From sequence record MZ501090: a stretch of DNA of 51,474 nucleotides. One strand, written 5' to 3'. Under the pieces are notes generated by a model. The model did no database searches, had not been told where the DNA came from, and saw nothing but the letters and a program-made list of their open reading frames with translations. Positions within the stretch are counted from its first letter, which is position 1; each line of letters starts with the position of its first letter. Origin of the DNA: Escherichia phage KarlJaspers. This document shows, piece by piece, positions 30,423 to 49,320 of the stretch. Position numbers and translations under genes: made by a program.

Positions 30423-30441
30423 ATAGCATTTTTTGTTAAAC
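30423..30441 (+). promoter_or_regulatory. conserved intergenic motif copy upstream of helicase
   Basis: ATAGCATTTTTTGTTAAAC, then TATTAT about 19 nt downstream. Confidence 0.5.
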
Positions 30442-30498
30442 GATGATTTAATGATTGTGTATTATACACGCCAAATGGCATTACTCAAAGGTTTTAGA

Positions 30499-32538
30499 AT
30501 GATTCCAAACATTGAAAAGCAAATATCAACACTTGGTGAAACGGTAATTAAATCCATTCAGGAGCGATTCACTGTTGGCGAGATTGTGCCTTACCATTAC
30601 CAGTGCGTTGCATACGCTGAGATCGCAAAGCGTATGAAAAATTATGAGCATCCATTCTTTGTTAAAGCGTCCGTATCGGCTGGCAAAACATTGATGTTTG
30701 CAATGGTTGCTCACCAGTGCCGGAAAATGGGCTTGAAAATGATGGTCCTTGCTCGCCAGGCTGAGATTGTGGATCAGGATTCTGAAGAGATAACAAATCT
30801 TGGTGTGCCGAACTCCATCTATTGTGCAGGACTGAAGACAAAAAGCGCATACTTTCCGATCGTTGTTGGTTCTGAGGGAACTGTAGTTAATGGACTGTTT
30901 AAAGCGCTTGGCGACTATGTTCCGCACGTTATCGGGATTGACGAGTGTCACCAGGTGGATTGGGAAGACCTTGCCGACGCAATAGAGAAAGACGAATCAT
31001 TTTTACAAATGACAACGAAGAAAGGCGAAAAAGTACCAAATCCAGATTATGACATAACGAGCGATAACGAATGCGAAGAGTTCCTGATTGGTGAGGATGG
31101 CTTGCCAATGGAGGGAACAGGCCGCACACAATACACTGTCATTATCATGGAAATGATGCGCCGCTGCCGGAAAACATATGGTCATGAACTGCGCATATTT
31201 GGCATGACTGGATCGGAGTTTCGCGGCGTAGTCCCGATCCTGGTAGAAGACAAAAAACAGAAAGGATTCTGGCGTGAACAGGTTACTAATATTGACACCA
31301 ACTACCTGATCAAATTCGGTTCTGTTGTGCCAACAAATTTTGGCGACGTTGGCGATCTAGGGTATGACCTTTCAGAGTTTGAGGCATCCAGTGAGGATGG
31401 AGTTGCAGACTTTGACGCTAAAACGCTTCGCAGGATGGAACAAAAAATTCATGAAGAAGCGACCATGACAAAGCGCATCATGGCGAAAGTTCACGAGATC
31501 TGTAAAAACCGCAACGGCGTACTTGTGACATGTGCAGGAGAAAGGCATTGCAAAGAGGCAGCGGCAGCGTTGCCACCTGGAACTACTTACAGGATCATTA
31601 CTGGTAAGACTGGCGACAATCAGCGCAAGGAGTGGTTGAGGGAAGCATACGAAGGGAAGGTAAAATACATCTTCCAGGTTCAGGCGCTAACTACTGGCGT
31701 TAACGTGCCGTTTTGGGATACGTCTGTTATTCTGCGTAAGATTGGATCGCTAACTTTGCTGATTCAGCTTTTAGGACGCGGAATGCGACTTCTTAAGAAA
31801 TGGCATAAGGAACAAGGCTTCAAGAAAGATGATCACCTGGTTATGGATTTTTCAGGAACGATGGACGAGTTAGGTGAGCTTTATTTTGATCCGATACTGG
31901 AACAGGCGCAACATCAGAAGCGATTCAGGAACGGTAAAGATCCGAAGCCTTGTCCTGTTTGCGGAACTCTTAATAGCTATTATGCTCGTCGTTGTATGCA
32001 CGTAGACGAAAACGGCAACAGATGCGAGTGGTTCTTTAAATTCAGGACATGTGATGATCAGATTGACCCGCGCACTAAAAAGATTATTCAGCGCGGTTGT
32101 GGAACGAAAAATGATATTGCGGCCAGGGTATGCAGACATTGCGACATGTCATTGATTGACCCTAACGAGAAGTTAAGCGGAAAGCACTACACAAAAAACG
32201 ACTGGTTTCAGGTGCAATCTTTCTCGGTTGACATGACGAAAAACCAGAAAGGGATAATATTTAATTATGAGCTTTCCGATGGCATAGATACTTTCAGGGC
32301 GAGAGAGATATTTTTCCCTGAATCTGAGAGCCAAATTTGCCGCGCAAAATGGCGAAGCGTTGCTCTTAAGCACATACCAGATCGCCGTGTTGCTGGCATG
32401 GTGGCGAGCTATCGTAATGCACGAAAAATAATGCAATATGTTAATCACATTATGCCGCCATCGCGTGTTACTCACAGAAAGACTAGCAATGGCGAAGATA
32501 ATTTATACAAGAAGGACTTTAATTATGGCAATGACTGA
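30499..32538 (+). CDS. ATP-dependent DNA helicase (SF2, DEAH-like)
   Basis: Walker A SAGKT, IGIDECHQ motif II, C-terminal Cys4 zinc ribbon; start 30499 chosen because motif overlaps track start 30433. Confidence 0.75.
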   Translation: MIPNIEKQISTLGETVIKSIQERFTVGEIVPYHYQCVAYAEIAKRMKNYEHPFFVKASVSAGKTLMFAMVAHQCRKMGLKMMVLARQAEIVDQDSEEITNLGVPNSIYCAGLKTKSAYFPIVVGSEGTVVNGLFKALGDYVPHVIGIDECHQVDWEDLADAIEKDESFLQMTTKKGEKVPNPDYDITSDNECEEFLIGEDGLPMEGTGRTQYTVIIMEMMRRCRKTYGHELRIFGMTGSEFRGVVPILVEDKKQKGFWREQVTNIDTNYLIKFGSVVPTNFGDVGDLGYDLSEFEASSEDGVADFDAKTLRRMEQKIHEEATMTKRIMAKVHEICKNRNGVLVTCAGERHCKEAAAALPPGTTYRIITGKTGDNQRKEWLREAYEGKVKYIFQVQALTTGVNVPFWDTSVILRKIGSLTLLIQLLGRGMRLLKKWHKEQGFKKDDHLVMDFSGTMDELGELYFDPILEQAQHQKRFRNGKDPKPCPVCGTLNSYYARRCMHVDENGNRCEWFFKFRTCDDQIDPRTKKIIQRGCGTKNDIAARVCRHCDMSLIDPNEKLSGKHYTKNDWFQVQSFSVDMTKNQKGIIFNYELSDGIDTFRAREIFFPESESQICRAKWRSVALKHIPDRRVAGMVASYRNARKIMQYVNHIMPPSRVTHRKTSNGEDNLYKKDFNYGND

Positions 32539-32944
32539 TAAAGGCGATTATCTTGAGTTTTACGAAAGAGATCCGACGGATACGCTAAAAGAGGAATCAC
32601 ACCAGATTGGGGCGTTTCAATGGTTAACTTATGCTCATCCTGAATTGCTGGCATGGCATACGAAAAACGAGGGCGACAAGGGAATCGCCACAGCAATGAT
32701 GGATCAGCAAGCTGGACTTGTTAAGGGAGTAAGTGATTTTATCATCCTGATTGGATTAAAAGGCCGTTACCCGTTCGCGGCAATAGAGATGAAGCGCGTC
32801 AATAAGTCCGGCAAGGGGAAGGCTTCACCAGTCAGCAAGGAGCAAAAAGCCTTCTTGCGCCGCGTGCGTGAGCTTGGCGGATTCGCTGCCGTAACATACG
32901 GATATAAGCAATTCATGATCGCGGTAGAATACATGATGAAATAG
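32525..32944 (+). CDS. VRR-NUC domain nuclease
   Basis: GVSDFIILIGL...AIEMKR...KEQKAFL typical VRR-NUC signature; ATG 32525 with AAGGA RBS. Confidence 0.65.
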   Translation: MAMTDKGDYLEFYERDPTDTLKEESHQIGAFQWLTYAHPELLAWHTKNEGDKGIATAMMDQQAGLVKGVSDFIILIGLKGRYPFAAIEMKRVNKSGKGKASPVSKEQKAFLRRVRELGGFAAVTYGYKQFMIAVEYMMK

Positions 32945-32960
32945 CACTTTTTGTTAAAAC
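32941..32960 (+). promoter_or_regulatory. conserved intergenic motif copy
   Basis: ATAGCACTTTTTGTTAAAAC overlapping stop TAG; followed by GGCGC...GCGCC hairpin and ATAATA. Confidence 0.6.
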
Positions 32961-33018
32961 AGGCGCGAAGGATTGCGCCATAATAACACAAGTTCAACAA
33001 GCAACAGGTAATTAAGAA

Positions 33019-33720
33019 ATGAGTAAAGAAACTGAAGTGACATTTGAACAAATAGAACGAGAAACATTCATTGGCAATGCTCTTGCTACTGGAGGCCATT
33101 ACCAGGCTGTTAAACCAAATCAATATTTCAAAGTGACTGGCAACCGCTATAACGGCAGCAATACGCCTGACATTGTGCGCGATTTGTGGTCTACGCCGTA
33201 TGAACTTGTCGCATGGATGGAAAGCGAATACGGTGATTATGACATCGACGCGGCGGCAAGCAAAGAAAATGCTGTATGTGAAAAATTCTACAGCAAGGAA
33301 ACAAATTGCTTAAAGCGTTGGTGGGGTAGTAACAAGCATATATGGCTGAATCCGCCGTACAGCAATATAACGCCTTTCGTTAAGAAAGCGATTGAGCAAA
33401 TGGAGCACAATAACCAGATCGACATTCTGTTACCTTGCGACACATCAACAGGATGGTTTTATGAAGCGCAGCAGCGCGCAGCGGAAATCATCTGGATCAC
33501 TGGCGAAGTTTACCAGGAGGACGGAACAGAATATTCCCGCACAGGACGCCTTGCGTTTACCTCTGCTCTTACAGGTAAACCAGTACAGGGAAACAACAAA
33601 GGAAGCGTTATTTTCATCATGCGCGAACTTAAAGAAGGTGAGCAGCAGAAAACTCGATACGTTAAAATCAGCGACATTTGCCCTTCGGTGGCAGACCGTC
33701 GCGCACGGAAACGGAGCTAA
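33019..33720 (+). CDS. dam: DNA N6-adenine methyltransferase (phage Dam-type)
   Basis: NPPY catalytic motif (HIWLNPPYSN); 233 aa. Confidence 0.8.
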   Translation: MSKETEVTFEQIERETFIGNALATGGHYQAVKPNQYFKVTGNRYNGSNTPDIVRDLWSTPYELVAWMESEYGDYDIDAAASKENAVCEKFYSKETNCLKRWWGSNKHIWLNPPYSNITPFVKKAIEQMEHNNQIDILLPCDTSTGWFYEAQQRAAEIIWITGEVYQEDGTEYSRTGRLAFTSALTGKPVQGNNKGSVIFIMRELKEGEQQKTRYVKISDICPSVADRRARKRS

Positions 33721-33724
33721 AACA

Positions 33725-33985
33725 ATGCAGAAAGAAAGAAGAGTTGTACTTAATGAAGATGGCGAATTTCTTTTGTATCGCGCTATGGTATGCGATGCAC
33801 TTGATAAAAACCCTAACGTGAAAAAGATGATTGATTGCGATCCGTGGGAATTTTCAAGCGCATTAGATATGAGCTTTGAGGAGACAAAAAAACTCCCACT
33901 TGAAAAATGGCACGAACAAATCAGAAATGACATGCAAGAATTTGTCGATTCGTGGAATTTTCAGAACGGAATGATCCACCAATAG
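33725..33985 (+). CDS. hypothetical protein
   Basis: ATG 33725 after Dam stop; track ORF 33392-33985 upstream part overlaps Dam out of frame. Confidence 0.4.
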   Translation: MQKERRVVLNEDGEFLLYRAMVCDALDKNPNVKKMIDCDPWEFSSALDMSFEETKKLPLEKWHEQIRNDMQEFVDSWNFQNGMIHQ

Positions 33986-34001
33986 CACTTTTTGTTAAAA
34001 C
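33982..34001 (+). promoter_or_regulatory. conserved intergenic motif copy
   Basis: ATAGCACTTTTTGTTAAAAC overlapping stop TAG; GCCCGAC-cttgt-GTCGGGC hairpin then ATAATT. Confidence 0.6.
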
Positions 34002-34057
34002 GCCCGACCTTGTGTCGGGCATAATTATTTCATCAAAACGAACAAGAGGAAAACAAA

Positions 34058-34237
34058 ATGGTTGTTTACGATCCACGCGCTTTTAAAATTGCTCAAGAAG
34101 TTTCACGCGAATCTGTTGCTGGCGGTTCGGTTAACGGATATCAGTTTGATTGGTCGGCAGCAATGACCCTGCTTAAGGTTGCATATGGTCACGCGCCAAT
34201 TGAAACAGCGGAGGAATATTATAAGCATGAAGGTTGA
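34058..34237 (+). CDS. hypothetical small protein
   Basis: 59 aa ORF (below track cutoff) with GAGGAAAA RBS, downstream of motif copy. Confidence 0.4.
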   Translation: MVVYDPRAFKIAQEVSRESVAGGSVNGYQFDWSAAMTLLKVAYGHAPIETAEEYYKHEG

Positions 34238-34469
34238 ACAAGGTAGGCAGGCCGTATGGGATCACGCAAAGGAGTGCGGGATCTCTGAAGACATAGCCAT
34301 GATAGCAAAATATTTTGATATTGCTGACATAAGCATTATCAGCGGCGACAAAATGACATTTCTCAATGAACGACCGCGCAAGATGCATCGCGTACCAGCA
34401 ATACCAACAAAGATTGATTTCAAAGAGGCTATGGCGAAAATTCGCGAGCCGCGCAAATACTACAAATGA
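34227..34469 (+). CDS. hypothetical protein
   Basis: ATG 34227 with GGAGGA RBS, overlaps previous small ORF. Confidence 0.35.
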   Translation: MKVEQGRQAVWDHAKECGISEDIAMIAKYFDIADISIISGDKMTFLNERPRKMHRVPAIPTKIDFKEAMAKIREPRKYYK

Positions 34470-34567
34470 GGATTATTATCATGTGGCGTTTGTTACTTTT
34501 GCCCTTACCTGTTATGATGGCGATCTCTATTGTATACGTTGTCATAATGAGATAAGGAGAATTTTTG

Positions 34568-35683
34568 ATGAAGCAAATCAAAATCACAGATGAACAATTT
34601 ATCAATGAGCGCAAGCAGGGAAAGACATATAAGCAGATCGCTAATGAGTATGGCATGAACGTTCGCAGCATTGAGCGCCGCGCGGCACGATTAGCAAAGC
34701 AAGGTAAAGTTACAACCATCGGATCGCCTGGTTTTGGTGTTACTGGAGAATCAAAGCTAATTGATAAAGATGGCAATGTGGTTATGACATGGATTAAGAC
34801 AAGTAAGGACCGCGAACAGCTAGAAGCATTAATGCAGGCCGCTATTGATGCATTTAGCGAAGAAGTCCCTCGACTTGATCCGCAGCCAGAATCACAAAAG
34901 GATTATAGCGAGACGTTATCACTGTATCCGATCTTTGATATGCACTTGGGCGCAATGGCGCATAAGCATGAATGCGGCGAGAACTGGGATACAGCAACAG
35001 CAGAGCGCGTAATGAATAATTTCATTGATTATTCCATCCAGTGCGCGCCGGATAGCGAAAATGCTGTTTTGCTGATTGGTGGTGACATGCTGCATAGTGA
35101 CGGCCTGGAAGCGGTGACACCTGCAAGCGGTCACGTATTGGATCAAGATAGTCGATACGCAAAACTTGTTTATGTTGCCATCCGGTCAGTGCGTAGAGCA
35201 ATTACAAAGCTGTTATCAAAACACAAAAACGTCGAGATTCAGATCATTGAAGGCAACCACGACCAAAGCGGCATGATCTGGTTGCGCGCAGCAATGGCGG
35301 CAGCATATGAGAATGAGCCACGAGTGCATGTTGATGTGTCTCCGCGAGTAGTTCATCACACACAATATGGCAAAACATTCCTGGCATACCATCACGGGCA
35401 CACTATCCGCAAGCCTGAAACATTGCTCATGATGTGCGCAGCAGACTGGCGCGAAGACTTCGGCAATTCAAAAATGATGTATGCTCACGTAGGGCATTGG
35501 CATCATCAAACAGTAACCGAAACAAGCCTGGGAATTGTTGAAGTGCATAGCACTATGGCGGCAAAAGATGCATATGCGGCGCGCGGTGGATGGCGTTCTC
35601 GCCGCCGTGCGGCTGTTATTGTTTATGATAAAGAATACGGAGAAGTGGGGCGATTTATGCATTATCCAGAAATTGCTGGTTGA
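34568..35683 (+). CDS. calcineurin-like metallophosphoesterase with N-terminal HTH-like region
   Basis: DMHLG, GGDMLH, GNHD, HHGH, GHWHH motifs; N-terminal KTYKQIANEYGMNVRSIERR helix-turn-helix-like. Confidence 0.6.
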   Translation: MKQIKITDEQFINERKQGKTYKQIANEYGMNVRSIERRAARLAKQGKVTTIGSPGFGVTGESKLIDKDGNVVMTWIKTSKDREQLEALMQAAIDAFSEEVPRLDPQPESQKDYSETLSLYPIFDMHLGAMAHKHECGENWDTATAERVMNNFIDYSIQCAPDSENAVLLIGGDMLHSDGLEAVTPASGHVLDQDSRYAKLVYVAIRSVRRAITKLLSKHKNVEIQIIEGNHDQSGMIWLRAAMAAAYENEPRVHVDVSPRVVHHTQYGKTFLAYHHGHTIRKPETLLMMCAADWREDFGNSKMMYAHVGHWHHQTVTETSLGIVEVHSTMAAKDAYAARGGWRSRRRAAVIVYDKEYGEVGRFMHYPEIAG

Positions 35684-35726
35684 ACTTTTAATCATTAAAA
35701 TATAAATATAAATCATCAATTTAATT

Positions 35727-35756
35727 GGGCGTGGCATTTTGCTTCGCCCTTTTTTT
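35727..35756 (+). terminator. rho-independent terminator
   Basis: GGGCG-13 nt loop-CGCCC hairpin followed by TTTTTTT. Confidence 0.65.
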
Positions 35757-35829
35757 ATTCCTTTTTGTGCGTTCAATGGTTAGGATACAAACAATTAATT
35801 GTTGACTTTTATATACAGGAGATCTAATC

Positions 35830-36045
35830 ATGAAAGATTTTTTAAACGCTGCAACTTCCGGCACTGGCGGCGCGTCAATCACTGGCGCGGTAACTGGTCA
35901 AACAACTATTGCAATAGCCAGCTTCGTTTTGATGGCTGCATTTGGTATGTGGGGCGCTTATCTTCGCTGGCGTGATAGTAAGGCGCTACGTGACGCGCTT
36001 GAATGCGGTGATATTAAGAAAGCTATTGAGATCAGAGGGAAATAA
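35830..36045 (+). CDS. holin (putative)
   Basis: 71 aa; one clear TM segment, charged C-terminus; immediately upstream of endolysin. Confidence 0.55.
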
Positions 36046-36533
36046 TGAGTATAAAACAAAGAGTGACCGCTGCGGCTTTTGGCGTTGCTCTTGCCCTTAC
36101 TTCTCCGCTACTGGAGGAAATAGAAGGAGTAAAACATAAGCCGTACAAAGATATTGCTGGGATATGGACGGTTTGCGCCGGAATAACTGGACCTGACGTA
36201 ATACAAGGCAAAACGTACACACAAAGAGAGTGCGATGCACTACTGGCAAAGCATATCAAGATCGCAAAGGATGAAGTTGATAAGCGTGTAAAGGTTGACA
36301 TTCCTGATACAATGCGCGCAGCAATGTATTCATTCACATACAATGCTGGAACTGGAGCTTTTAGAAATTCAACCATGCTTAAGCTGATTAATAACGGTCG
36401 TTATATGGAAGCGTGCAATCAGTTATGGCGATGGACAAAATACACCAATCCAAAAACAGGAAAGAAAGAAACGTCTAAAGGACTGCGCAACCGCCGCGCG
36501 GTGGAATTTAAATATTGCATTAAGGATCTGTAA
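36045..36533 (+). CDS. SAR endolysin (T4-lysozyme-like muramidase)
   Basis: N-terminal signal-anchor-release helix; catalytic E-D-T spacing ([23 protein letters not shown]). Confidence 0.85.
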
Positions 36534-36535
36534 TC

Positions 36536-36934
36536 ATGAGAAAGTTATCAGCAATCGCGATCGCTGTTATTTTGTCTGGATGTTCAAGCGTTACGCCACT
36601 GACCGGATTAATCGGTAGTAAGCCGGAAATCACAGCACAGGCAGGAGCGGAGAACGTAAAGCAGACCGTTGGCGTTACCGCAAAGCAGGACACCAGCACA
36701 AAACAGGAAACTACAATAAAGGAATCTGCGGTTGATAAGGTGGACACTTCCAGCAAGAAGGATTTCACTACGTCAACCATTCAGGCTAACACCATCAAGG
36801 CTGATAAAATCCAGGTTGTGCAGGGTGAGCAAAGTAAGTGGTACGATCCTATAATCTATTGCGCTGCAATTTTCAGTGGTCTTTTGTCAATGCTTTACTT
36901 TTCCTACCGCAAAGGCAACAAAAAGGAGGCTTAA
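36536..36934 (+). CDS. unimolecular spanin (lipoprotein with C-terminal TM)
   Basis: Lipobox ILSGCSS at N-terminus plus C-terminal TM helix; architecture as described for T1 gp11. Confidence 0.7.
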   Translation: MRKLSAIAIAVILSGCSSVTPLTGLIGSKPEITAQAGAENVKQTVGVTAKQDTSTKQETTIKESAVDKVDTSSKKDFTTSTIQANTIKADKIQVVQGEQSKWYDPIIYCAAIFSGLLSMLYFSYRKGNKKEA

Positions 36935-36950
36935 CGCCTCCTTTGTTTTA
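36924..36950. terminator. bidirectional terminator-like hairpin between convergent genes
   Basis: AGGAGGC-ttaac-GCCTCCT hairpin with T-rich flanks on both strands. Confidence 0.45.
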
Positions 36951-37184
36951 TAGTGAATCCATCAAATCTTGAAAGCTGTTTCCGCTATAATCATTCTCGA
37001 CAAGAATGTAAGCACCTTTCTTCTTTATATCCCATAGCATTTCATTGTATTCGTAACGATTTATTTCAAACGTGCTGCCATCTTCTCTTGTCGCAGTTCC
37101 TTTGTCGTTGAAAACATCAAAAGTTACATTGATGATTTTTGTCTCTTTCTTTGTTACTTTGATAGCCATTTTTAAAATCCTCAT
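36948..37184 (-). CDS. hypothetical protein
   Basis: 78 aa ORF downstream of motif copy 37227-37246. Confidence 0.4.
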   Translation of the reverse strand: MRILKMAIKVTKKETKIINVTFDVFNDKGTATREDGSTFEINRYEYNEMLWDIKKKGAYILVENDYSGNSFQDLMDSL

Positions 37185-37756: not shown

Positions 37757-37758
37757 AA

Positions 37759-41449: not shown

Positions 41450-41454
41450 TATAT

Positions 41455-42483: not shown

Positions 42484-42752
42484 TTCTTGATCTCCTCAGC
42501 AATAAATTTCAGGACTTTGCGCAAAAACACTTCATTATTGATGGTCGCTGGCAATTCCTCTTTCACTTCTTGCGGCAGGTAAACGTTGCCATGCCAGGTC
42601 AAGCAATCGTAGTTGATACGATAAGAGCAAAGCCACTCGCAATCGTTATCCGCTTCCCAAATGCAGAGTTGCAGAACATCGCCGAAGTCTTCAACAGTCA
42701 GGTCCAGACCGTGACGCTTTGCAAAGTTGAAAGTGGTTTTGCTGATGTTCAT
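42480..42752 (-). CDS. hypothetical protein
   Basis: 90 aa ORF, first gene of leftward early operon. Confidence 0.4.
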   Translation of the reverse strand: MNISKTTFNFAKRHGLDLTVEDFGDVLQLCIWEADNDCEWLCSYRINYDCLTWHGNVYLPQEVKEELPATINNEVFLRKVLKFIAEEIKK

Positions 42753-42815
42753 TTGCTTTCTCCTGATGGGTATCTCGTTTCGATGGGATAACTATACCAG
42801 GTTATCCCGATCGTG

Positions 42816-42834
42816 CTTTAACAAAAAGTGCTAT
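42816..42834 (-). promoter_or_regulatory. conserved intergenic motif copy
   Basis: Minus strand ATAGCACTTTTTGTTAAAG, then GGGATAA...TTATCCC hairpin with TATAGT. Confidence 0.6.
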
Positions 42835-43099
42835 TTGCTGACTGGTCATTATTCCACATATTCCATTAATCAGGAATAACAGGAATAATTCATTCGCGAT
42901 CACCTGGATTGTGAGACTTTGAGTTTGATCAATTTTAATCAGTTGATTAACTTTTTGTGTGGAGGGGATAGAGAAATGCGGCCCTCTTGCATCCTTTCCG
43001 GCAATCCTGGCGCGCACATCTGTTATTTCTGTTCCCCGTGTTATCTCAAATAAGCCTCCGCACTTTTAGATAACAGAATCGGCGTTCATCAACAAAAAG

Positions 43100-43300
43100 A
43101 ACAAAATAAAATTTATATATATACCCATAAAATCAATAAGTTAGTTATATATGTATTTATATTTGTTATTTACTGTTGAGCTTGTTCTATTGGTATATGG
43201 TGGGGTGGTATTGTTTGTGGTGATATGTATGTGTGATTGTATATTTTTTAATCAATGGTGATGTGTGGTGATTTTTGTATGTATATATATGGGTATGGGG
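43100..43300. repeat. AT/GT-rich non-coding island, copy 2 (homologous to 20960-21130)
   Basis: Core AAATCAATAAGTTAGT at 43130-43145 plus GT-rich tracts (GGTGATTTTTGTATG). Confidence 0.7.
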
Positions 43301-43424
43301 CAATCCTCCGTCAACCAAGTCAACAAGGTCATTTTTAACAGAAAAACCAATGGCTTAACTGAAGCATTTTGTTATCTTTAAACACGCCATGCGCCAAAAA
43401 TTGTTATTAAAACACAAAAATACA

Positions 43425-43455
43425 TTGACATGCAGGAAGGGCAAGGCAATAATGC
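43425..43455 (+). promoter_or_regulatory. candidate promoter for rightward early operon
   Basis: TTGACA at 43425-43430; -10 assignment ambiguous (TAATGC at 19 nt). Confidence 0.3.
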
Positions 43456-43489
43456 ATTAAGTTTAAACGCAACAAAAGGAGTAGATGCC

Positions 43490-43960
43490 ATGATCGAAGA
43501 AAATATTAGCACCATGTCGCGTAGTGAGTTCTGCGATATGCTTCGCGACCTGGGCGCGGCAATTGGTAGTGGTGAGCGTAATAATGTATTCATGCCAGCG
43601 CTTTTTTTGTGCGCTAATGTGGAGAACGGCGAAGCAATTACGGCATCGTACATGCGCCAGGTTGTCAACCGCGTACCTGAAGTAAAGCAAAAAGGCGTGA
43701 TCAGCATTAAGCGAAAGGTGACTGATGAGGGTGATGGCTTTGTGTTTGCGCTCACTGAAGCCAAAAGCAAACCTCGTGTTCTGACTGGGGATGATATAGC
43801 GAAACTTGAAATCAAGTGGCGAGCAAAGTTTATTGCTCAACTACTGAAAACACAGCCGCGAATCAGTGATCTGGAAGGTGAGCGCCTGGAGGGTGCGGCA
43901 ATCGCACTTGAGCGAATGAATGAAATGCTCAACGAGATGGTAAAGGTGGGGGATGAATAA
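43490..43960 (+). CDS. hypothetical early protein
   Basis: ATG 43490 with AAGGAG RBS (track start 43430 lacks RBS); 156 aa. Confidence 0.45.
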   Translation: MIEENISTMSRSEFCDMLRDLGAAIGSGERNNVFMPALFLCANVENGEAITASYMRQVVNRVPEVKQKGVISIKRKVTDEGDGFVFALTEAKSKPRVLTGDDIAKLEIKWRAKFIAQLLKTQPRISDLEGERLEGAAIALERMNEMLNEMVKVGDE

Positions 43961-44220
43961 TGAATAAGGCATTAATTGGAGTTTTGATTGCAATTGCTAC
44001 CCTGACCGGATGCGAAAAGGCATCTGAATCAACGGTAGTCGTAGGCGTGGAGTCAGATTTTAAAGTCGGTCGCCTGTTTACTGTTGATGGATGCACTGCG
44101 TACCGATTCTATGACAACGGTCGGGCAATCTATTACACCAATTGTAAGGGCGCAACGGATAGCACATACCGCAGCGGCAAAAACGTAATGCACCAACAAG
44201 TCACAACAGATATGAAATAG
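43960..44220 (+). CDS. early lipoprotein (possible exclusion protein)
   Basis: Signal peptide with lipobox LTGC; 86 aa. Confidence 0.5.
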   Translation: MNKALIGVLIAIATLTGCEKASESTVVVGVESDFKVGRLFTVDGCTAYRFYDNGRAIYYTNCKGATDSTYRSGKNVMHQQVTTDMK

Positions 44221-44236
44221 CACTTTTTGTTAAAAC
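44217..44236 (+). promoter_or_regulatory. conserved intergenic motif copy
   Basis: ATAGCACTTTTTGTTAAAAC overlapping stop; GCCAGG-tgcaaat-CCTGGC hairpin then ATAATA. Confidence 0.6.
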
Positions 44237-44292
44237 GCCAGGTGCAAATCCTGGCATAATAGCCTCATCGAAACGAGATTGAGGAAAACAAA

Positions 44293-44478
44293 ATGGCACG
44301 TCGCATTACCAAAGACCTTAAAGTACTGAACAAAGAAAACGTAGTTAAAATCCTGGTAATCTGGGGATACAACGAAGAAACAGCAAAGCAGAAGGTAGAT
44401 GCGGGTTATGACCTGGCTGTAAAAGCAATGCCAAACGACGACGCCAAAGGCATTGCAAACTATGTAGCTTTCTTTTAA
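44293..44478 (+). CDS. hypothetical protein
   Basis: 61 aa ORF with GAGGAAAA RBS. Confidence 0.4.
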   Translation: MARRITKDLKVLNKENVVKILVIWGYNEETAKQKVDAGYDLAVKAMPNDDAKGIANYVAFF

Positions 44479-44493
44479 TTAGCAGGTGAATAA

Positions 44494-44679
44494 ATGAAAA
44501 CGAAATTAGTCCATAAATCAGAAATCAAGATCGGCGATACTGTGATTCACAACGGAGAGCTTAGAACGGTTGGCAAAGAGTCAATAAGCCGCGATGAATT
44601 TATGGGGATCTTGTTGTTCGGTGACTCTTATCGGCTGGGTTATAAAATGGTTGAGCTTGTGGAAGAGGTAAAATTCTAA
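44494..44679 (+). CDS. hypothetical protein
   Basis: 61 aa ORF. Confidence 0.4.
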   Translation: MKTKLVHKSEIKIGDTVIHNGELRTVGKESISRDEFMGILLFGDSYRLGYKMVELVEEVKF

Positions 44680-44699
44680 ATAGCACTTTTTGTTAAAAC
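44680..44699 (+). promoter_or_regulatory. conserved intergenic motif copy
   Basis: ATAGCACTTTTTGTTAAAAC directly after stop TAA; ATAATA downstream. Confidence 0.55.
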
Positions 44700-44777
44700 T
44701 CAAAAACGATAACCAGGCATAATACACACATAGGGCGGCACGGCGTCGCCCAGTTAAACCAATCAGGAGAAAGCACT

Positions 44778-45668
44778 ATGTTAAAACTTGCTAACATTAA
44801 ATTCCCGATCACCTTCGAATCTCGCGGCGTTGGTCACTTCATGTTTTCCGACAAAAATACATGCACTAAGTTTAACGAATACGGAAAGCCTGATGTTTCA
44901 ACAATGGAGATTGAGCACCTCATTGATGCGCACAATAAGCACTACAACTCGCTTAAAGACTATGGCTACGCAATGCCAGGCTATACATGTTTTCACTACA
45001 AGCCATATAAGGGCCAGGTGTTACCAGTGCGCTCACCGGAACGCGCAGAGATTCCGATGGTCGAGATGAAAACCTGCGACTATAAAAAATTGTGGTGCTT
45101 AAGAGTGGATAACATCAAGTATCCGATCACGTTCTACACGGCTGGTAATTCAACGATTCGCTTCACATCGCGCGAAAATGGCGTTTATAGCGATGGTACG
45201 AAATCAGAGTTGAAAGTTGATTTCTTTGTCAATGGTCACAACAAATTCAATCCGCACAACGAAGAGGATAAGGTTTACTACGTGGAAGACATTACAAAAC
45301 ACTTGTTTGGAGATGCGCCAATTGGCGGCGGGAAGACGTCAATTCAGCAAATCATTGGCGAGGAGATCCACAAGGCAGCCGTTAAAATGAAAGCACCTGT
45401 AGGCTGGCGTATTGACAAGAGCGCCTTTGCATATCAAGAAATCGTAACGCAGGGCAAAATTGAAGATATGCCGCTTGGCGCTTCAATCATCGGCATCAGA
45501 GACAATAACGGCGACTGGAATGATGTTTCATTCCCTGTCAAGCGGATCGAGTTGCACGAAGACCTGATTTGCATCCTGGCGCATCATGGCAGCTATAAGG
45601 ACAAGCCATTCGCCGCCGAGCTTAACATCAAGCGCGGAACTATGGTTAAGTGGAAAGTCAAAGTGTAA
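44778..45668 (+). CDS. hypothetical protein with internal duplication
   Basis: 296 aa; NIKFPITFESRG (N-terminus) repeated as NIKYPITFYTAGN about 100 residues later. Confidence 0.45.
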   Translation: MLKLANIKFPITFESRGVGHFMFSDKNTCTKFNEYGKPDVSTMEIEHLIDAHNKHYNSLKDYGYAMPGYTCFHYKPYKGQVLPVRSPERAEIPMVEMKTCDYKKLWCLRVDNIKYPITFYTAGNSTIRFTSRENGVYSDGTKSELKVDFFVNGHNKFNPHNEEDKVYYVEDITKHLFGDAPIGGGKTSIQQIIGEEIHKAAVKMKAPVGWRIDKSAFAYQEIVTQGKIEDMPLGASIIGIRDNNGDWNDVSFPVKRIELHEDLICILAHHGSYKDKPFAAELNIKRGTMVKWKVKV

Positions 45669-45688
45669 ATAGCACGAATTGTTAAAAC
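45669..45688 (+). promoter_or_regulatory. conserved intergenic motif copy (GAATT variant)
   Basis: ATAGCACGAATTGTTAAAAC; GGCC...TATAAT...GGCC downstream. Confidence 0.55.
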
Positions 45689-45741
45689 TCAAATGTGGGG
45701 CCAGGTATAATGGCCTCACTTTCAACGAAGGAGATAAAACG

Positions 45742-45960
45742 ATGTACATTAGCAAGAAGATGAAATGCGTTTCCGTTAATTATGGTTGTGCTGGAATGTT
45801 CAAGCCTGGCGAAATCTATACGGCGCAAAAACTGAAATCATCAACCGGATCCTTTTACGTCAGCAACAGCAAAGGGCATCGCATGTTCCTGAACGGAGGT
45901 GAAGGCACTAAGGTTATGGCACACGCTATGGTAATTGCTGAATTTGAGGAAGTGAAATAA
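45742..45960 (+). CDS. hypothetical protein
   Basis: ATG 45742 with AAGGAG RBS; 72 aa. Confidence 0.4.
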   Translation: MYISKKMKCVSVNYGCAGMFKPGEIYTAQKLKSSTGSFYVSNSKGHRMFLNGGEGTKVMAHAMVIAEFEEVK

Positions 45961-46499
45961 TGAAAAAATACGAATTTGAACTTTGGGGCAGCAAATACCA
46001 TTTTTCCACTAGCAAGCCGATTGTTATCGTTGACCTGGACGGAACGTTATCAGACGGAACGCATCGCTTACACCTTCTTCCGACAGAGGATTTACACCTT
46101 ACAGAAAGCTGGTCTGAGTTCAATAAGGCGGCTGTTGGCGATTCGCCGATTAAGAGCACTGTTGCAGTGGTTAACGGTTTGTGGATGTCAGGATTTGCCA
46201 TCGTTATCCTGACCGGACGTAGCGATGAAGTGATGGAGGACACCTGCAAATGGATTAACGAAAACGGCATCAAGTACGATGCGTTAATCATGCGCCGCAA
46301 GGAAGACAACCGCAAAGACACAATCATCAAAGAAGAAGTCTTGCGCGCTATCGGACTGGAAAACATTGTGTGCGCTTTTGATGATTCGCCGAACGTGGTT
46401 AAGCACTTCCGAAGCCTGGGAATCACAACCTATCAGGTCACGGAATACGACAAGCCACACAATCATATCCAATCGCATGGCGTGGAGGAATTGAAATGA
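45960..46499 (+). CDS. HAD-family phosphatase (T4 Pnk phosphatase-domain-like)
   Basis: DLDGT motif I, TGR motif II, RKDTIIKEEVL and FDDSP; resembles T4 Pnk phosphatase (recalled from memory). Confidence 0.55.
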   Translation: MKKYEFELWGSKYHFSTSKPIVIVDLDGTLSDGTHRLHLLPTEDLHLTESWSEFNKAAVGDSPIKSTVAVVNGLWMSGFAIVILTGRSDEVMEDTCKWINENGIKYDALIMRRKEDNRKDTIIKEEVLRAIGLENIVCAFDDSPNVVKHFRSLGITTYQVTEYDKPHNHIQSHGVEELK

Positions 46500-46657
46500 C
46501 CTGGATTCTATTTGTGATTATCACAAGCTACAATTCAGCCGCCATTGAGTCTCGCGAGTTCCACGGTGAATCAAGATGTCAGGCCGCGAGAGAGCAAGTA
46601 ATTTTGCATATGTCAGATAACGATAAAGAAGTTGAAGTATTCTGCATTCGTAAATAG
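46496..46657 (+). CDS. hypothetical small protein (53 aa)
   Basis: ORF below track cutoff; hydrophobic N-terminus WILFVIITSY; stop TAG inside motif copy. Confidence 0.3.
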   Translation: MTWILFVIITSYNSAAIESREFHGESRCQAAREQVILHMSDNDKEVEVFCIRK

Positions 46658-46673
46658 CACTTTTTGCAAAAAC
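46654..46673 (+). promoter_or_regulatory. conserved intergenic motif copy (variant)
   Basis: ATAGCACTTTTTGCAAAAAC; GGGCTT...AAGCCC hairpin enclosing TATAGT downstream. Confidence 0.55.
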
Positions 46674-46728
46674 AGATTGTCGGGCTTGCGGTATAGTAAG
46701 CCCATCGACAACAAACGAGGATTAAATC

Positions 46729-46992
46729 ATGGTTAATAAAGTTGAGTTTTTCAAAGCGGTAGACAAGATTGACGGCGCGCCAAGTTTCTTTGCTATCCAT
46801 TCCATTGACGGCGAAGACGTTGAATACAACGTGATTAGTCGAGACGGTATATCAAAACTTAGTGACCTGGTGGGTTATATTGTGGCGAACGGGAAATGTG
46901 CATGGCCCGATTCACCACGAGAGCCGCGCCGCCGCGACATGCAAAATCCAGTTCTGCTTTACACGCTGGTAATTGAAGTAGTCAACAAATGA
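46729..46992 (+). CDS. hypothetical protein
   Basis: 87 aa with GAGGA RBS. Confidence 0.4.
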   Translation: MVNKVEFFKAVDKIDGAPSFFAIHSIDGEDVEYNVISRDGISKLSDLVGYIVANGKCAWPDSPREPRRRDMQNPVLLYTLVIEVVNK

Positions 46993-47174
46993 TTTGGTTA
47001 CTTGTATTTTTAGTAGTTTTCTTTTATATTTCAGGCTTATTCATCTTCCGCGCATTGGTTAAAGAGTGTGATTGCACTGATAAAGATCAGCCTCTTGTTC
47101 TGATGTTCTGGTTTGTGTGGTTTTGGGTGGCGCTTTACCAGATTGTACGGGATGAAAGCGGTTTTAAGTGGTGA
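46989..47174 (+). CDS. small membrane protein (two predicted TM helices)
   Basis: 61 aa; LLVFLVVFFYISGLFIF and LVLMFWFVWFWVALY hydrophobic stretches. Confidence 0.4.
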   Translation: MIWLLVFLVVFFYISGLFIFRALVKECDCTDKDQPLVLMFWFVWFWVALYQIVRDESGFKW

Positions 47175-47229
47175 TTCTTACTATAGCGCATTCACGCAGT
47201 GCGCTATGTTGAGATAACAACAGGAGTTC

Positions 47230-47367
47230 ATGAAGATGCGAAACTTCGAAAAAATCGTAACCAAGAAAAAGCGCTACAGCTACGACGAGCACCGCGAGAT
47301 GAATCAACGCTATCGCAAGAAGCGCCAGCGCACAGGTAAACATTCAAGCAGATATGGAGAAAACTAA
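47230..47367 (+). CDS. hypothetical small basic protein (45 aa)
   Basis: CAGGAG RBS; Lys/Arg-rich; stop adjoins kinase start; not in ORF track. Confidence 0.3.
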   Translation: MKMRNFEKIVTKKKRYSYDEHREMNQRYRKKRQRTGKHSSRYGEN

Positions 47368-47368
47368 T

Positions 47369-47959
47369 ATGAAGCGAGACATTATCATCCTTAACGGACC
47401 GCCAGGAGTTGGCAAGGATACGCTTGCGGCATACTTAACTGGCCATCGTTACGCAGCCGTTAAAGCGTCGTTTAAGCAACCGATGTTTGATATTGCATTC
47501 TCCATGCTTGGCGTTTACCTATATGACGAGTTCATTGATCTGTATAACGACCGCGAGCAGAAAGAAAAGCCTCAAGCAATCTTGCAAGGCAATTCGCCTC
47601 GCAAGTTCATGATCTGGATTAGCGAAGAAGTCATGAAGCCAGCTTTTGGCGAGCAATATTTCGGAAATCGCATGGTTGAGCAAGTACACGAGATGTACAG
47701 AGATTTGGCTGTTGTAATTAGTGATGGCGGATTCCCTGAAGAAATCAAGCCGCTCGTTAAGGCAGGCCATGAAGTTCACATTTGCCGACTGCATCGCGAA
47801 GGATTCACGTTTGATGGCGATTCGCGAAACTATATTGACCTGAGCGGATACCATCACCGAGTCAAGCATTACGACTTCACAATGATTGATGGCGAGCCAG
47901 AAAAGACTGTTGACGAGATCATCAAAACGGTGCAGTGGAAACACACAAAGATTGAATAG
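47369..47959 (+). CDS. P-loop nucleotide kinase (dNMP kinase-like, putative)
   Basis: Walker A GPPGVGKDT near N-terminus; ATG 47369 preferred over 47354 (GGAG 9 nt upstream). Confidence 0.5.
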   Translation: MKRDIIILNGPPGVGKDTLAAYLTGHRYAAVKASFKQPMFDIAFSMLGVYLYDEFIDLYNDREQKEKPQAILQGNSPRKFMIWISEEVMKPAFGEQYFGNRMVEQVHEMYRDLAVVISDGGFPEEIKPLVKAGHEVHICRLHREGFTFDGDSRNYIDLSGYHHRVKHYDFTMIDGEPEKTVDEIIKTVQWKHTKIE

Positions 47960-47975
47960 CACGAATTGCTAAAAG
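47956..47975 (+). promoter_or_regulatory. conserved intergenic motif copy (GAATT variant)
   Basis: ATAGCACGAATTGCTAAAAG overlapping stop TAG; TATAAT downstream. Confidence 0.5.
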
Positions 47976-48029
47976 CGGGGCACAATGCCTCGCTATAATA
48001 CAAACACCAATCAACGAGAGGAAATCATC

Positions 48030-48431
48030 ATGGTAGAGTTAAACGACATTCGCGTTGGGACAAAATTTCGCGTAACCTGGGCAGATAAATATTGCGGAGT
48101 TAGCAAGGGCCAGATTGTTACTGTGGATAGTATTTATCGCGGATGCAGCAAAGACTTTCGGCGCCCACGCATCAAGAATGGCTATATCATTACTCGCCGT
48201 TTTGGGTTTGATCATTATTGCGTAGTGTCAACTCAAGGCGCTTTGATTGAGCTTAAGCGAATAAGCGATCATCGCGGCTGTCATGTTAAGACAATGAAAA
48301 CACCATTTCAGCGAGCGCGATACGATGCGCGACGGATGCGCCGACTTGCTCGAAATGCGATCAAGTTCAAAAAGCCTGGCAGTAATTTTTACAGAATGTA
48401 CAAAGGGATTGCGCGAAATGCTGGGAAATAA
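48030..48431 (+). CDS. hypothetical protein
   Basis: ATG 48030 with GAGAGGAAA RBS; basic C-terminus. Confidence 0.4.
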   Translation: MVELNDIRVGTKFRVTWADKYCGVSKGQIVTVDSIYRGCSKDFRRPRIKNGYIITRRFGFDHYCVVSTQGALIELKRISDHRGCHVKTMKTPFQRARYDARRMRRLARNAIKFKKPGSNFYRMYKGIARNAGK

Positions 48432-48530
48432 CAACAACGCAACCAATCCAAAGCCGCCATTTGATTTTCATGAAATCATGATTGTGTTATTCTTGATTCT
48501 CTTAGTTGTTTATTCAGTGAGGGCCGCAAT

Positions 48531-48794
48531 ATGGTTTTTAATGCACTAAAACGAATCTTTAAACCTGAATACCGGATCGTTGCTTGCACAGAATGTAAGA
48601 TTTATTACCTGCAACGCCGCCGCGTTATTAGTGGGGATTGTGAATATCTAACTGATGATGCTTTCGGATTTTGGGCTATGGAGTTCAATAGCTACAGCGA
48701 AGCGCGTGAATACGCTAAAAAGTTGCACAAGTTCAGACCTTACAAGCTGCGTTTGCTGGTTGTCAAAAAATGCGATGTGTGGGATCACGAATGA
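48531..48794 (+). CDS. hypothetical protein
   Basis: 87 aa ORF. Confidence 0.35.
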   Translation: MVFNALKRIFKPEYRIVACTECKIYYLQRRRVISGDCEYLTDDAFGFWAMEFNSYSEAREYAKKLHKFRPYKLRLLVVKKCDVWDHE

Positions 48795-48970
48795 AAAGAG
48801 TAATTATCATTTTTATTGCCGTTATCGCTGGTTGTTACCTGGCTTATAATTATAGCGGCATTGTTGAGTCAATCGGCGGGTTGATTATCTTCATGGCTGG
48901 TGGGTATGCTGGCTATTGTGATGGATTCGAGAACGGAAAGCGTTACGTGCTGACCGGAAAAAAGAAGTAA
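48791..48970 (+). CDS. small membrane protein
   Basis: MKRVIIIFIAVIAGCYLAY and GGLIIFMAGGYAGY hydrophobic segments. Confidence 0.35.
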   Translation: MKRVIIIFIAVIAGCYLAYNYSGIVESIGGLIIFMAGGYAGYCDGFENGKRYVLTGKKK

Positions 48971-49013
48971 TGTTAACCGCGCCGCTTCGGTGGCGCTAAA
49001 AGGAGGAAACAAA

Positions 49014-49301
49014 ATGGCTAAAAGCAATCGTAAAATGTTGATTAACGCATTCGAAAAGGAAGCGCTTGAGCGTGGTTGGAATGACTCATTTCACACAGCA
49101 AACTGTATCCGCCGTTACGGATTCAAGGATTGCCGATCCTGGGCGCGTCAAATGGCTTCATGGTATGATCTTGATGCGCATTACCTTGATATGGATTGCG
49201 CCCTGGTTGAAATGATTGAGCAGGCCGCACTAGAGGATCGACCATTAACGCAATCTGATTTTGACGATTTTGTGCGCGATGAAATCTATTACATGAGCTA
49301 A
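49014..49301 (+). CDS. hypothetical protein
   Basis: ATG 49014 with AAAGGAGGAAA RBS; 95 aa. Confidence 0.45.
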   Translation: MAKSNRKMLINAFEKEALERGWNDSFHTANCIRRYGFKDCRSWARQMASWYDLDAHYLDMDCALVEMIEQAALEDRPLTQSDFDDFVRDEIYYMS

Positions 49302-49320
49302 TAGCACTTTTTGTTAAAAC
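49301..49320 (+). promoter_or_regulatory. conserved intergenic motif copy
   Basis: ATAGCACTTTTTGTTAAAAC overlapping stop TAA. Confidence 0.55.

Follow-up and report, generated by a model that had tools for sequence, protein, structure and literature searches.

Escherichia phage KarlJaspers (sequence record MZ501090) carries a short motif that recurs in its intergenic regions, which raises the question of what this motif does and which protein reads it. The motif was analysed in one stretch of 51,474 nucleotides, here called the window, for which a sequence-only reading had listed about 18 copies, usually followed by a GC-rich hairpin and a TATAAT-like hexamer, and had suggested either a phage-specific promoter class or a boxA/boxB-like RNA element. 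From the sequence comparisons presented here, the motif is best explained as a consensus marbox, the site of a host activator family, in class II-like sigma70 promoters. Megablast of the 30–50 kb part showed the window to belong to a T1-like siphovirus of the Drexlerviridae, genus Hanrivervirus, with 94–95% identity to Escherichia phage herni, Shigella phage pSf-1, damhaus and JakobBernoulli. A tRNA scan and an Rfam scan of the window detected no tRNA and no Rfam family.

Occurrence of the repeat

A search with the pattern ATAGCACNNNNNGTTAAAAC, allowing up to three mismatches, gave 19 matches in the window compared to 1.91 expected, and none of 100 shuffled sequences reached 19. All positions listed earlier were recovered, so that the repeat, which has the form ATAGCAC(N3)TTG(Y)TAAAAC and is present in approximately 20 copies, is real. 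Additional copies were found at 29933(-), 22378(+) and 16019(+), and the degenerate copy reported at 20870(-) was located to 20869-20888, where it reads ATGGCACTTTTTGCTAAACG. The observation that the stop codon of the upstream gene tends to fall within the motif was borne out: of 21 copies, 15 have this stop codon inside the motif or abutting it, and for 10 of the 15 it is the TAG at motif positions 2–4.

The repeat itself has been described before. In the re-annotation of phage TLS from 2024, a 21-nt direct repeat (aaATAGCACnnnTTGnTAAAA) was reported in 18 intergenic copies that run in the direction of transcription about 76 nt 5′ of start codons and divide into A, T, and G subgroups, and the same repeat was also found in T1, Rtp, and Rogue1 (PMC11447400). 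The authors considered stoperators, enhancer-binding sites or UP elements and left the function as a question, and only three sigma70 promoters were reported in TLS (PMC11447400), which suggests that the -10 hexamer described below was overlooked. The repeat of TLS, T1, Rtp, and Rogue1 is the same element as the window motif, being likewise intergenic and oriented with transcription, whereas the hexamer 18 nt downstream and the marbox identity are absent from the TLS paper and are added here. What is new is thus the identification of the repeat as a consensus marbox, the repeat having been described already in TLS, T1, and Rtp. A literature search found no mapping of transcript 5′ ends for T1-like phages.

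The motif and a -10 hexamer form one cassette

Alignment of the copies showed a larger cassette, in which the motif of 20 bp follows the upstream stop codon and is itself followed, after 18 nt, by a TATAAT-like hexamer. Next come 6 nt with C as the last, an A, the weakly conserved TCGAAACGA, a ribosome-binding site (RBS), and the ATG. In the window, 18 copies were located 17–18 nt 5′ of a sigma70 -10 hexamer and without a -35 box, the gap to the best -10-like hexamer being 18 nt in 14 copies and 17 nt in four. The same cassette was found in T1 and in Klebsiella Webervirus NJR15. Conservation was assessed in 83 T1-like genomes or loci, among them 80 IMG/VR loci around the phage helix-turn-helix (HTH) regulator. 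They yielded 359 unique cassettes, and the gap was 18 nt in 251, 17 nt in 45 and 19 nt in 11 of these cassettes (307 within 17–19 nt).

A profile of 49 copies drawn from three genera (the window, T1, and NJR15) gave the consensus aATAGCAC(T/G)(W)(W)TTG(Y)TAAAAC from -51 to -31. The predicted start is the A located 7 nt past the hexamer, and relative to this position the motif spans -50 to -31 with its centre at -40.5. Within the motif, G-47, C-46, A-45, T-40, G-38, and A-34 were invariant. In the -10 region and at the start, A-11 and T-7 were present in all 49 copies, G-14 in 43, C-1 in 34, and A+1 in 40. Positions -35 to -30 read AAAACc, and hence contain no -35 hexamer.

The spacing between the TTGTTA part and the hexamer had been estimated at about 22–23 nt, and TTG(Y)TA was indeed found 22 bp 5′ of the -10 hexamer. 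A standard sigma70 -35/-10 pair is separated by 17 ± 1 bp, which disqualifies TTG(Y)TA as a -35 element. Together with the CA start and the sigma70-specific signature of the -10 hexamer, the rigid distance indicates that motif and hexamer are read as one promoter. The earlier suggestion of a phage-specific promoter class needing an activator was thus partly right: a -10 hexamer without a correctly spaced -35 is an activator-dependent layout, but the motif conforms to the consensus host marbox and is in that sense not phage-specific.

The motif corresponds to the marbox

The marbox has been defined as 5′-gcaNNwwNtgNNaaa-3′, and at class II promoters it is placed in forward orientation and overlaps the -35 position (PMC12052159). 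Class II sites cluster near -41 in forward orientation, at promoters that keep the -10 hexamer and the start site and have no -35 (PMC10268841). At micF, the 20-bp robbox consists of the elements GCAC and CAAA, of which CAAA overlaps -35, and Rob was shown to displace sigma70 region 4 and to contact both this region and the C-terminal domain of the RNA polymerase alpha subunit (alpha-CTD; PMC9178005). The RamA site at micF is likewise located at approximately -41 (PMC8811837).

Used blind, the published marbox pattern (GCANNWWNTGNNAAA) gave 20 perfect matches in the window (1.70 expected), 20 in T1 (0.74 expected), and 14 in NJR15 (0.79 expected), and in each case none of 100 shuffles reached the number observed. 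The classical 20-bp consensus, AYnGCACnnWnnRYYAAAYn, is said to stem from work by Martin et al. in 1999; searched as AYNGCACNNWNNRYYAAAY with at most one mismatch, it gave 20 matches in the window compared to 1.41 expected. The phage motif fits the shorter definition perfectly and the longer one at all positions except position 19. In a further comparison, 388 cassettes were anchored only on GCA..AAA plus the -10 hexamer, which leaves the other motif positions free. Among these, A1 was present in 89%, Y2 in 93%, C7 in 86%, W9 and W10 in 95%, R13 in 94%, Y14 in 94%, and Y15 in 96% of cassettes, so that the degeneracy code of the marbox was obeyed everywhere except at position 19. Variation among the copies is confined to positions at which this code is degenerate.

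The orientation and the frame agree as well. GCAC is upstream and AAAAC adjoins the spacer in all 18 cassettes with a -10 hexamer, i.e. the forward orientation. The class II promoter of E. coli micF, read from the genome, consists of ACAGCACTGAATGTCAAAAC, 18 nt, and TAGAAT, and thereby shares with the phage cassettes the frame, the orientation, the terminal AAAAC, the 18-nt gap, and also the A at position 19. The marbox of the mar operon was identical to one phage variant at 17 of 20 positions. The cassettes thus combine an asymmetric 20-bp marbox, forward orientation, a centre near -41, a fixed distance to the -10 hexamer and the lack of a -35, as class II promoters do.

Other DNA-binding factors were compared with the motif. 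For the host global regulator Lrp, the consensus yAGhAwATTwTdCTr, obtained by in vitro selection (SELEX), fits motif positions 2–16 with 10 positions fully and three partially matched. In the phage copies, the central ATT, which is the best conserved part of that consensus, is replaced by a variable TTT, GAA, AAA, or TAA. For C-44, T-40, and A-34/-33, which do not vary in the phage, the Lrp consensus either specifies no base or disagrees, and Lrp normally binds arrays of degenerate sites and not one site fixed 18 nt from a -10 hexamer; an Lrp site is accordingly considered very improbable. A sigma54 promoter (TGGCAC-N5-TTGC) was rejected, since the motif reads TAGCAC-N3-TTGC, with a spacing 2 bp short and AG for GG. 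The consensus sequences for IHF, OmpR, ArcA, CRP, Fis, and DnaA, compared by eye, gave poor or partial matches, and for OmpR the shared ACTTTTTG is lost in the GAATT variant.

A further explanation is that no activator is involved and that RNA polymerase itself reads the motif as an UP-like element plus a displaced TTG(Y)TA, with G-14 and a good -10 hexamer being sufficient and the likeness to the marbox being without consequence. The motif does hold T- and A-tracts and a TTGnTA hexamer, G-14 is present in 88% of copies beside a strong -10, an UP-like role was suggested by the TLS authors (PMC11447400), and the T1 promoter Pdam shows activity both in ordinary E. coli and in a lysate (PMC6737242). 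However, TTG(Y)TA at 22 bp from the -10 is beyond the tolerance of sigma70, and the invariant G-47, C-46, A-45, C-44, and G-38 imply a base-specific reading of the major groove, unlike that by alpha-CTD. UP elements are A/T-tract sites of the minor groove, located at about -59 to -38 and 5′ of a -35 hexamer, whereas here invariant G/C positions (G-47, C-46, C-44, G-38) occur in the motif, the A-tract lies at -35 to -32, in the -35 position, and there is no -35 element. It is also very unlikely that the motif would match two marbox definitions by chance and show the exact micF spacing besides. Taken together, this explanation appears quite improbable.

The probable reader of the marbox

The only HTH regulator of the phage, Pir, is a rival, phage-encoded candidate. 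Its gene, pir, is a core gene present in 842 T1-like phage records, and the HTH domain is of the Cro family. T1 Pir (Orf23) is an activator at Phol and Pdam and a repressor at PrecE and at its own promoter (PMC6737242). It is thus a regulator of demonstrated function, and one of the promoters activated by it, Pdam, carries the motif in its canonical arrangement. In the window, the canonical leftward pir promoter shares its -10 region, on opposite strands, with the rightward motif promoter of the cassette starting at 30423, and Ppir overlaps an inverted motif downstream of its start; the T1 pir promoter (TTGAAT-17-TATAAT) likewise shares its -10 region with a rightward motif promoter. Moreover, the motif has an imperfect palindromic core, TAGCA-N5-TGYTA at -42, that suits a dimeric HTH protein. 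Pir could thus bind the motif as a dimer, activate in the way lambda cI does at PRM, and repress its own promoter.

Comparison of 86 Pir homologues speaks against this, as 18 very different recognition helices were found among them (e.g. VSIQVVQQW, VNLKTVWGW, VTPQAVEEW, and ISNSLLTIW) and the motif core was unchanged, i.e. there was no covariation. The Pir-regulated T1 promoters Phol and PrecE lack the motif, and a search for an operator common to the four Pir-responsive regions of T1 (Phol, Pdam, Ppir, and PrecE) was negative. Pdam also works without Pir, both in Pir-free E. coli and in cell-free lysate (PMC6737242). The conserved flanks of the motif (A1, AAAAC) and its W/Y degeneracy are asymmetric and follow the marbox code instead of the palindrome. 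Pir was rejected as the best model because of the lack of covariation and its control of promoters without the motif, and we regard it as an unlikely reader.

As a separate observation, the parts of Pir that are best conserved across genera are not the recognition helix; they are the N-terminal basic segment IDKRxINGNNGxRRGKDKK and the Cys-containing C-terminal segment FRASFCRPDLRFDxNGKP..RC. Klebsiella phage RSU-F4K5, which does not belong to the Drexlerviridae, contains an HTH-only homologue directly 5′ of the primase and no marbox motif.

No phage homologue of MarA/SoxS was found by phmmer or tblastn, and no AraC/XylS Pfam domain was found in the 56 non-structural phage open reading frames (ORFs) of at least 90 aa, so that this negative result holds for ORFs of that length and for homologues that are not very remote. 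Neither a phage sigma factor nor an AraC/XylS-type protein was recognisable. With no recognisable phage AraC/XylS protein, and with the Pir helices varying against an unchanged motif, a host activator of the MarA/SoxS/Rob/RamA type is the likeliest reader. We consider it fairly probable, judging from sequence, that such an activator binds and activates these promoters, and in that case the phage would probably have placed the majority of its early genes under a regulator of the host stress response.

In the mechanism we propose, the marbox, with RE1 (GCAC) at -47 to -44 and RE2 (TAAA) at -36 to -33, would replace the -35 hexamer at -50 to -31 and would be bound by a monomeric two-HTH host activator (MarA, SoxS, or Rob, and RamA in Klebsiella and Salmonella). 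As has been shown structurally for Rob and RamA at micF, the activator would displace sigma70 region 4 from the -35 position, contact this region and alpha-CTD, and recruit RNA polymerase. Rob is made constitutively and in large amounts, for which reason it would be the most likely factor at the moment of infection; bile salts, fatty acids or dipyridyl activate it. In hosts that are stressed or multidrug-resistant, MarA, SoxS, and RamA might further raise the output of these promoters. The marbox promoters, about 18 in number, would be located inside operons headed by a few canonical promoters (e.g. 43425 and 21259) and would drive most early and replication gene blocks. The hairpins described below would form a second, independent layer in the sense RNA that is read into the cassettes, some as terminators and others as stabilisers of 3′ ends.

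Several points weigh against the host activator. In the phage, A3 and T11 hardly vary although the marbox has N at both positions, and position 19 is A and not Y, which suggests a further constraint on the motif or another reader, either instead of the host activator or beside it. The activation of a motif promoter by Pir, the inverted motif overlapped by the Pir-repressed Ppir and the palindromic core at -42 count here as well. The levels of MarA and SoxS are low in unstressed cells and Rob is largely sequestered, so that a virulent phage with a fast cycle would take a risk in depending on them. Ordinary K-12 supports good growth of T1, and to our knowledge mutants in rob, marA or soxS have never been reported to be T1-resistant. 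Our literature search found no paper linking mar/sox/rob to T1-like phages, and no binding or activation experiment on these sites.

Hairpins within the cassettes

RNAfold of positions -30 to +3 compared with shuffles gave a mean z of -3.1, and 13 of 17 window copies had z below -2.5. A strong perfect stem was present in 60.5% of 248 cassettes with an 18-nt gap compared to 5.1% of shuffles that kept the -10 hexamer, and by this shuffle control the GC-rich inverted repeats noticed previously are real. The order described for them, hairpin and then hexamer, holds for a part of the copies only. These are class A hairpins, which lie wholly in the spacer, starting at -30/-29 and ending at -13 to -10. 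About half of the copies have the -10 hexamer between the two arms and hence in the loop, and the 3′ arm is located in the discriminator and ends at -1 to +4 (class B). The arms thus fill the positions that the promoter leaves unconstrained, i.e. the spacer (-30 to -13) and the discriminator (-6 to -1).

The mismatches within the stems show in which molecule the hairpins act. Among single internal stem mismatches, 35 were G.T and four A.C, compared with 85 and 92 in composition-preserving shuffles, and after collapse to 94 independent hairpin families the ratio was still 11:2 (p = 0.02). A G.T mismatch becomes a G.U pair in the sense-strand transcript and nowhere else, and selection therefore acts on these structures in RNA transcribed from the upstream gene. 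The hairpins are sense-RNA structures of upstream transcripts, separate from promoter recognition, and the view of them as part of the promoter signal is not supported. The same asymmetry ruled out a DNA cruciform, an N4-like hairpin promoter, a MerR-like distortion of the spacer, and an antisense RNA. Extrusion of the hairpin to bring TTGTTA to a 17-bp spacing was also rejected, as removal of about 18 nt leaves only 4. In orthologous cassettes, 118 stem pairs were invariant, 12 showed G.U-mediated changes, seven were compensatory, and 28 had a disrupting variant. This compensatory signal is modest, and the case for selection on the hairpins rests mainly on the diversity of paralogous cassettes and the strand asymmetry.

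The hairpins, together with the fact that the motif is transcribed in read-through RNA and is oriented with transcription between genes, also bear on the explanation that the motif itself acts at the RNA level, as an antitermination signal like boxA/boxB or as a block to elongation like a stoperator, the latter being an idea raised by the TLS authors (PMC11447400). A lambda-type nut site has a conserved boxB stem-loop or loop that an N-type protein recognises, whereas the hairpin sequences and loops here are unrelated to one another (94 families, placed at two positions), and 36 of the 94 cassette families have no hairpin. The rigid spacing of 17–19 nt to a sigma70 -10 hexamer with invariant A-11 and T-7 is a property of a DNA promoter. 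The motif has no Rfam match and does not covary with the only phage HTH protein, and going by its sequence features, the fixed -10 distance included, it differs from stoperators of the mycobacteriophage L5 type, which are asymmetric, bound by a cognate phage repressor and not tied to promoter elements. An RNA-acting motif, including the boxA/boxB-like element proposed at the outset, is consequently held to be highly improbable.

We infer that the hairpins may serve as 3′-end stabilisers or partial terminators. Two window hairpins, at 34002-34020 and 37209-37225, are terminator-like, and their equivalents are annotated as terminators in T1. The T content of the 9 nt after the stem averages 3.8 in class A and 1.9 in class B, and only a subset has terminator-like U-tails, a point that tempers this part of the proposal.

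Distribution of cassettes and other copies in the window

The coordinates of all cassettes, other motif copies, and hairpins are listed in Table 1.

Table 1. Putative marbox promoter cassettes, motif copies lacking promoter geometry, the pir locus, and hairpins in the window (gap, nt between motif and -10 hexamer; +1, predicted start).
Feature	Position	Strand	Marbox (sequence)	-10 hexamer	Gap	+1	Associated gene or remark
Cassette	10072-10122	-	10103-10122 (ATAGCACTTTTTGTTAAAAG)	TATCAT 10079-10084	18	10072	Antisense to late genes
Cassette	20839-20888	-	20869-20888, degenerate (ATGGCACTTTTTGCTAAACG)	TATAGT 20846-20851	17		Gene 20545-20814(-)
Cassette	22378-22427	+	22378-22397 (ACAGCACAAATAGCTAAACA)	TATAAT 22415-22420, TG-extended	17		Gene 22459-22740
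Cassette	29902-29952	-	29933-29952 (AAAGCACTAATTGCTAAAAA)	TATCAT 29909-29914	18		Primase-like gene 28948-29880(-)
Cassette	30423-30472	+	30423-30442 (ATAGCATTTTTTGTTAAACG)	TATTAT 30460-30465	17		Helicase gene 30499-32538
Cassette	32941-32991	+	32941-32960	CATAAT 32979-32984	18	A 32991	Gene 33019-33720
Cassette	33982-34032	+	33982-34001	CATAAT 34020-34025		A 34032	Gene 34058-34237
Cassette	37196-37246	-	37227-37246	TATATT 37203-37208		A 37196	Gene 36948-37184(-)
Cassette	39364-39414	-	39395-39414 (ATAGCATTTTTTGTTAAATG)	TATTAT 39371-39376		A 39364	Gene 37759-39342(-)
Cassette	40040-40090	-	40071-40090	CATAAT 40047-40052		A 40040	Gene 39629-40015(-)
Cassette	41907-41957	-	41938-41957	TATATT 41914-41919		A 41907	Gene 41688-41882(-)
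Cassette	42784-42834	-	42815-42834	TATAGT 42791-42796		A 42784	Gene 42480-42752(-)
Cassette	44217-44267	+	44217-44236	CATAAT 44255-44260		A 44267	Gene 44293-44478
Cassette	44680-44730	+	44680-44699	CATAAT 44718-44723		A 44730	Gene 44778-45668; without spacer hairpin
Cassette	45669-45718	+	45669-45688 (ATAGCACGAATTGTTAAAAC)	TATAAT 45706-45711	17	A 45718	Gene 45742-45960
Cassette	46654-46704	+	46654-46673 (ATAGCACTTTTTGCAAAAAC)	TATAGT 46692-46697		A 46704	Gene 46729-46992
Cassette	47956-48006	+	47956-47975 (ATAGCACGAATTGCTAAAAG)	TATAAT 47994-47999		A 48006	Gene ending 48431
Cassette	49301-49351	+	49301-49320	TAAAGT 49339-49344		A 49351	Gene 49377-49589
Orphan marbox	6342-6361	-	6342-6361 (ATAGCATTTTTTGTTAAACG)				Antisense, just 5′ of major-capsid gene region; T1 equivalent 15086(-)
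Orphan degenerate marbox	16019-16038	+	16019-16038 (ATAGCACAAAAGGTGAAAAA)				On RBS and start codon of tail gene 16041-19619 (1192 aa)
Degenerate marbox-like copy	2087-2106	+	2087-2106 (ATAGCACGAATCGACAAACC)				After large-terminase gene, then terminator 2118-2140; without promoter geometry
pir	29936-30409	-					Cro-family HTH regulator gene, homologue of T1 orf23
Canonical sigma70 promoter of pir	30461-30488	-					TTGAGT-16-TATAAT; inverted marbox in 5′ untranslated region, adjoining RBS
Hairpin class A	32962-32979	+					dG -11.4, z -3.7
Hairpin class A, terminator-like	34002-34020	+					Followed by ATAATTATTT
Hairpin class A, terminator-like	37209-37225	-					Followed by TATATTTGTT
Hairpin class A	40053-40070	-
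Hairpin class A	44237-44255	+
Hairpin class A	47976-47992	+
Hairpin class B	29900-29928	-					dG -18.1, z -5.0
Hairpin class B	39361-39384	-
Hairpin class B	41904-41937	-
Hairpin class B	42781-42813	-
Hairpin class B	45695-45719	+
Hairpin class B	46682-46703	+
Hairpin class B	49327-49350	+

Close to pir, the stop codon of this gene falls inside the marbox at 29933-29952(-). Only the copies at 6342(-) and 10103(-), which had been described as inverted, are antisense to late genes; the copy at 30423 is co-oriented with the helicase gene downstream of it. The inverted late copies had been taken to argue against a simple promoter-only model, and they do not contradict a promoter role of the other 18 copies.

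Among the copies of the late region, the class II geometry is present in 10103(-) and absent from 6342(-), 16019(+), and 2087(+). The cassette at 10103(-) overlaps a rightward canonical promoter (TGTACA-16-CATAAT, 10070-10097) just before the tail gene at 10136, and it faces a bidirectional terminator at 10041-10059, so that the predicted RNA is only 15–30 nt. This layout is conserved in T1 at 18850(-), and the antisense promoter could be a promoter-occlusion switch or a source of a small RNA. No -10 hexamer was found at 17–19 nt from the copy at 6342-6361(-). The placement of the 16019 copy is conserved in T1 (25021) and TLS (24908), and the copy at 2087 is probably a relic.

A weakly conserved leader, A-TCGAAACGA, was observed at +1 to +11 of most cassettes (e.g. 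44267-44277 and 42784-42774(-)), with an information content of 0.3–0.45 bits per position. A similar leader (ATCGTAAACGAAGGAG) follows the canonical recE promoter of T1, which is without the motif, and the leader is thus independent of the marbox. It was also observed that matches to canonical sigma70 -35/-10 promoters are depleted in 40001-51474 of the window (11 compared to 23.8 ± 4.4 expected from shuffles), which fits early transcription relying on marbox-type promoters.

The non-coding regions 20830-21315 and 43020-43430 were found to be partial direct repeats of each other. Their common core is ATATAC..ATAAAATCAATAAGTTAGT..TATTTATATTTGTT, followed by G/T-rich short repeats (GTGGTGAT/GTGTGT). 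Each of them separates a leftward from a rightward gene block and has a canonical sigma70 promoter match on its right edge (21259, TTGACT-16-TACAAT; 43425, TTGACA-17-AATAAT), and they may be origins or primary early control regions.

About 20 GenBank records within MG065636-MG065680, named 'Campylobacter phage' with Campylobacter jejuni as the host, were 93–100% identical to 30000-50000 of the window. These records are likely to be contaminants or mislabelled entries.

Implications and comparison with known systems

A wider claim would be that nearly all of the early programme of T1-like phages, the Klebsiella Webervirus therapy candidates included, has been made dependent on the host Mar/Sox/Rob/RamA stress regulon, which we put forward tentatively and regard as doubtful at present. 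If it were true, a whole family of virulent enterobacterial phages would use host activators of stress response and antibiotic resistance as early transcription factor. Cells under bile, antibiotics or oxidants, or multidrug-resistant marR, ramR or soxR mutants, in which the activators are overproduced, would then support faster early phage expression and be better hosts. A link would arise between phage susceptibility and bile or antibiotics, and also between susceptibility and mutations in mar/ram/sox, which are frequent in multidrug-resistant E. coli and Klebsiella, with a bearing on phage therapy and phage-antibiotic synergy. Replication would multiply the approximately 20 perfect-consensus marboxes of each genome, and these would titrate the activators and weaken host efflux and stress response. 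The cassettes would also be a naturally occurring collection of class II marbox promoters with a super-consensus site, and they provide an example of an RNA hairpin layer nested in unconstrained promoter positions.

Compared to class II host promoters of Enterobacteriaceae (e.g. micF, lpxCP2, and rfaYP1), the phage cassettes have the same asymmetric 20-bp marbox with GCAC and YAAA in forward orientation near -41, and the same canonical -10 hexamer and start without a recognisable -35; the gap at micF is also 18 nt. They differ in that about 18–20 sites are present per 50-kb virulent genome and serve most early gene blocks, and in that the phage sites are of perfect consensus, whereas validated host class II sites have 1–3 mismatches. 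Fixed A3 and T11, a strongly conserved G-14 and an RNA hairpin interleaved in the spacer also set the phage cassettes apart.

The promoter-early stem-loops (PeSLs) of T4-like phages, in which a short conserved intergenic early promoter is combined with a variable stem-loop flanking small early genes (PMC4122927), resemble the window cassettes as composites of an early promoter and a stem-loop of variable sequence beside small early genes. PeSL promoters, which belong to cassettes that mediate shuffling of genes by recombination, are, however, standard sigma70 early promoters with a -35, whereas the window cassettes have a marbox as upstream element and their stem-loop is nested within the promoter, in the spacer or around the -10 hexamer. 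Lambda PRM, with cI at OR2, and the T4 MotA/AsiA middle promoters share with the window cassettes a weak or absent -35 and an activator near -35 that contacts sigma70 region 4, which for the window cassettes is the predicted arrangement. The activators in these two systems are encoded by the phage (cI; MotA with AsiA), whereas the site in the window is that of a host activator family and no phage protein tracks the motif.

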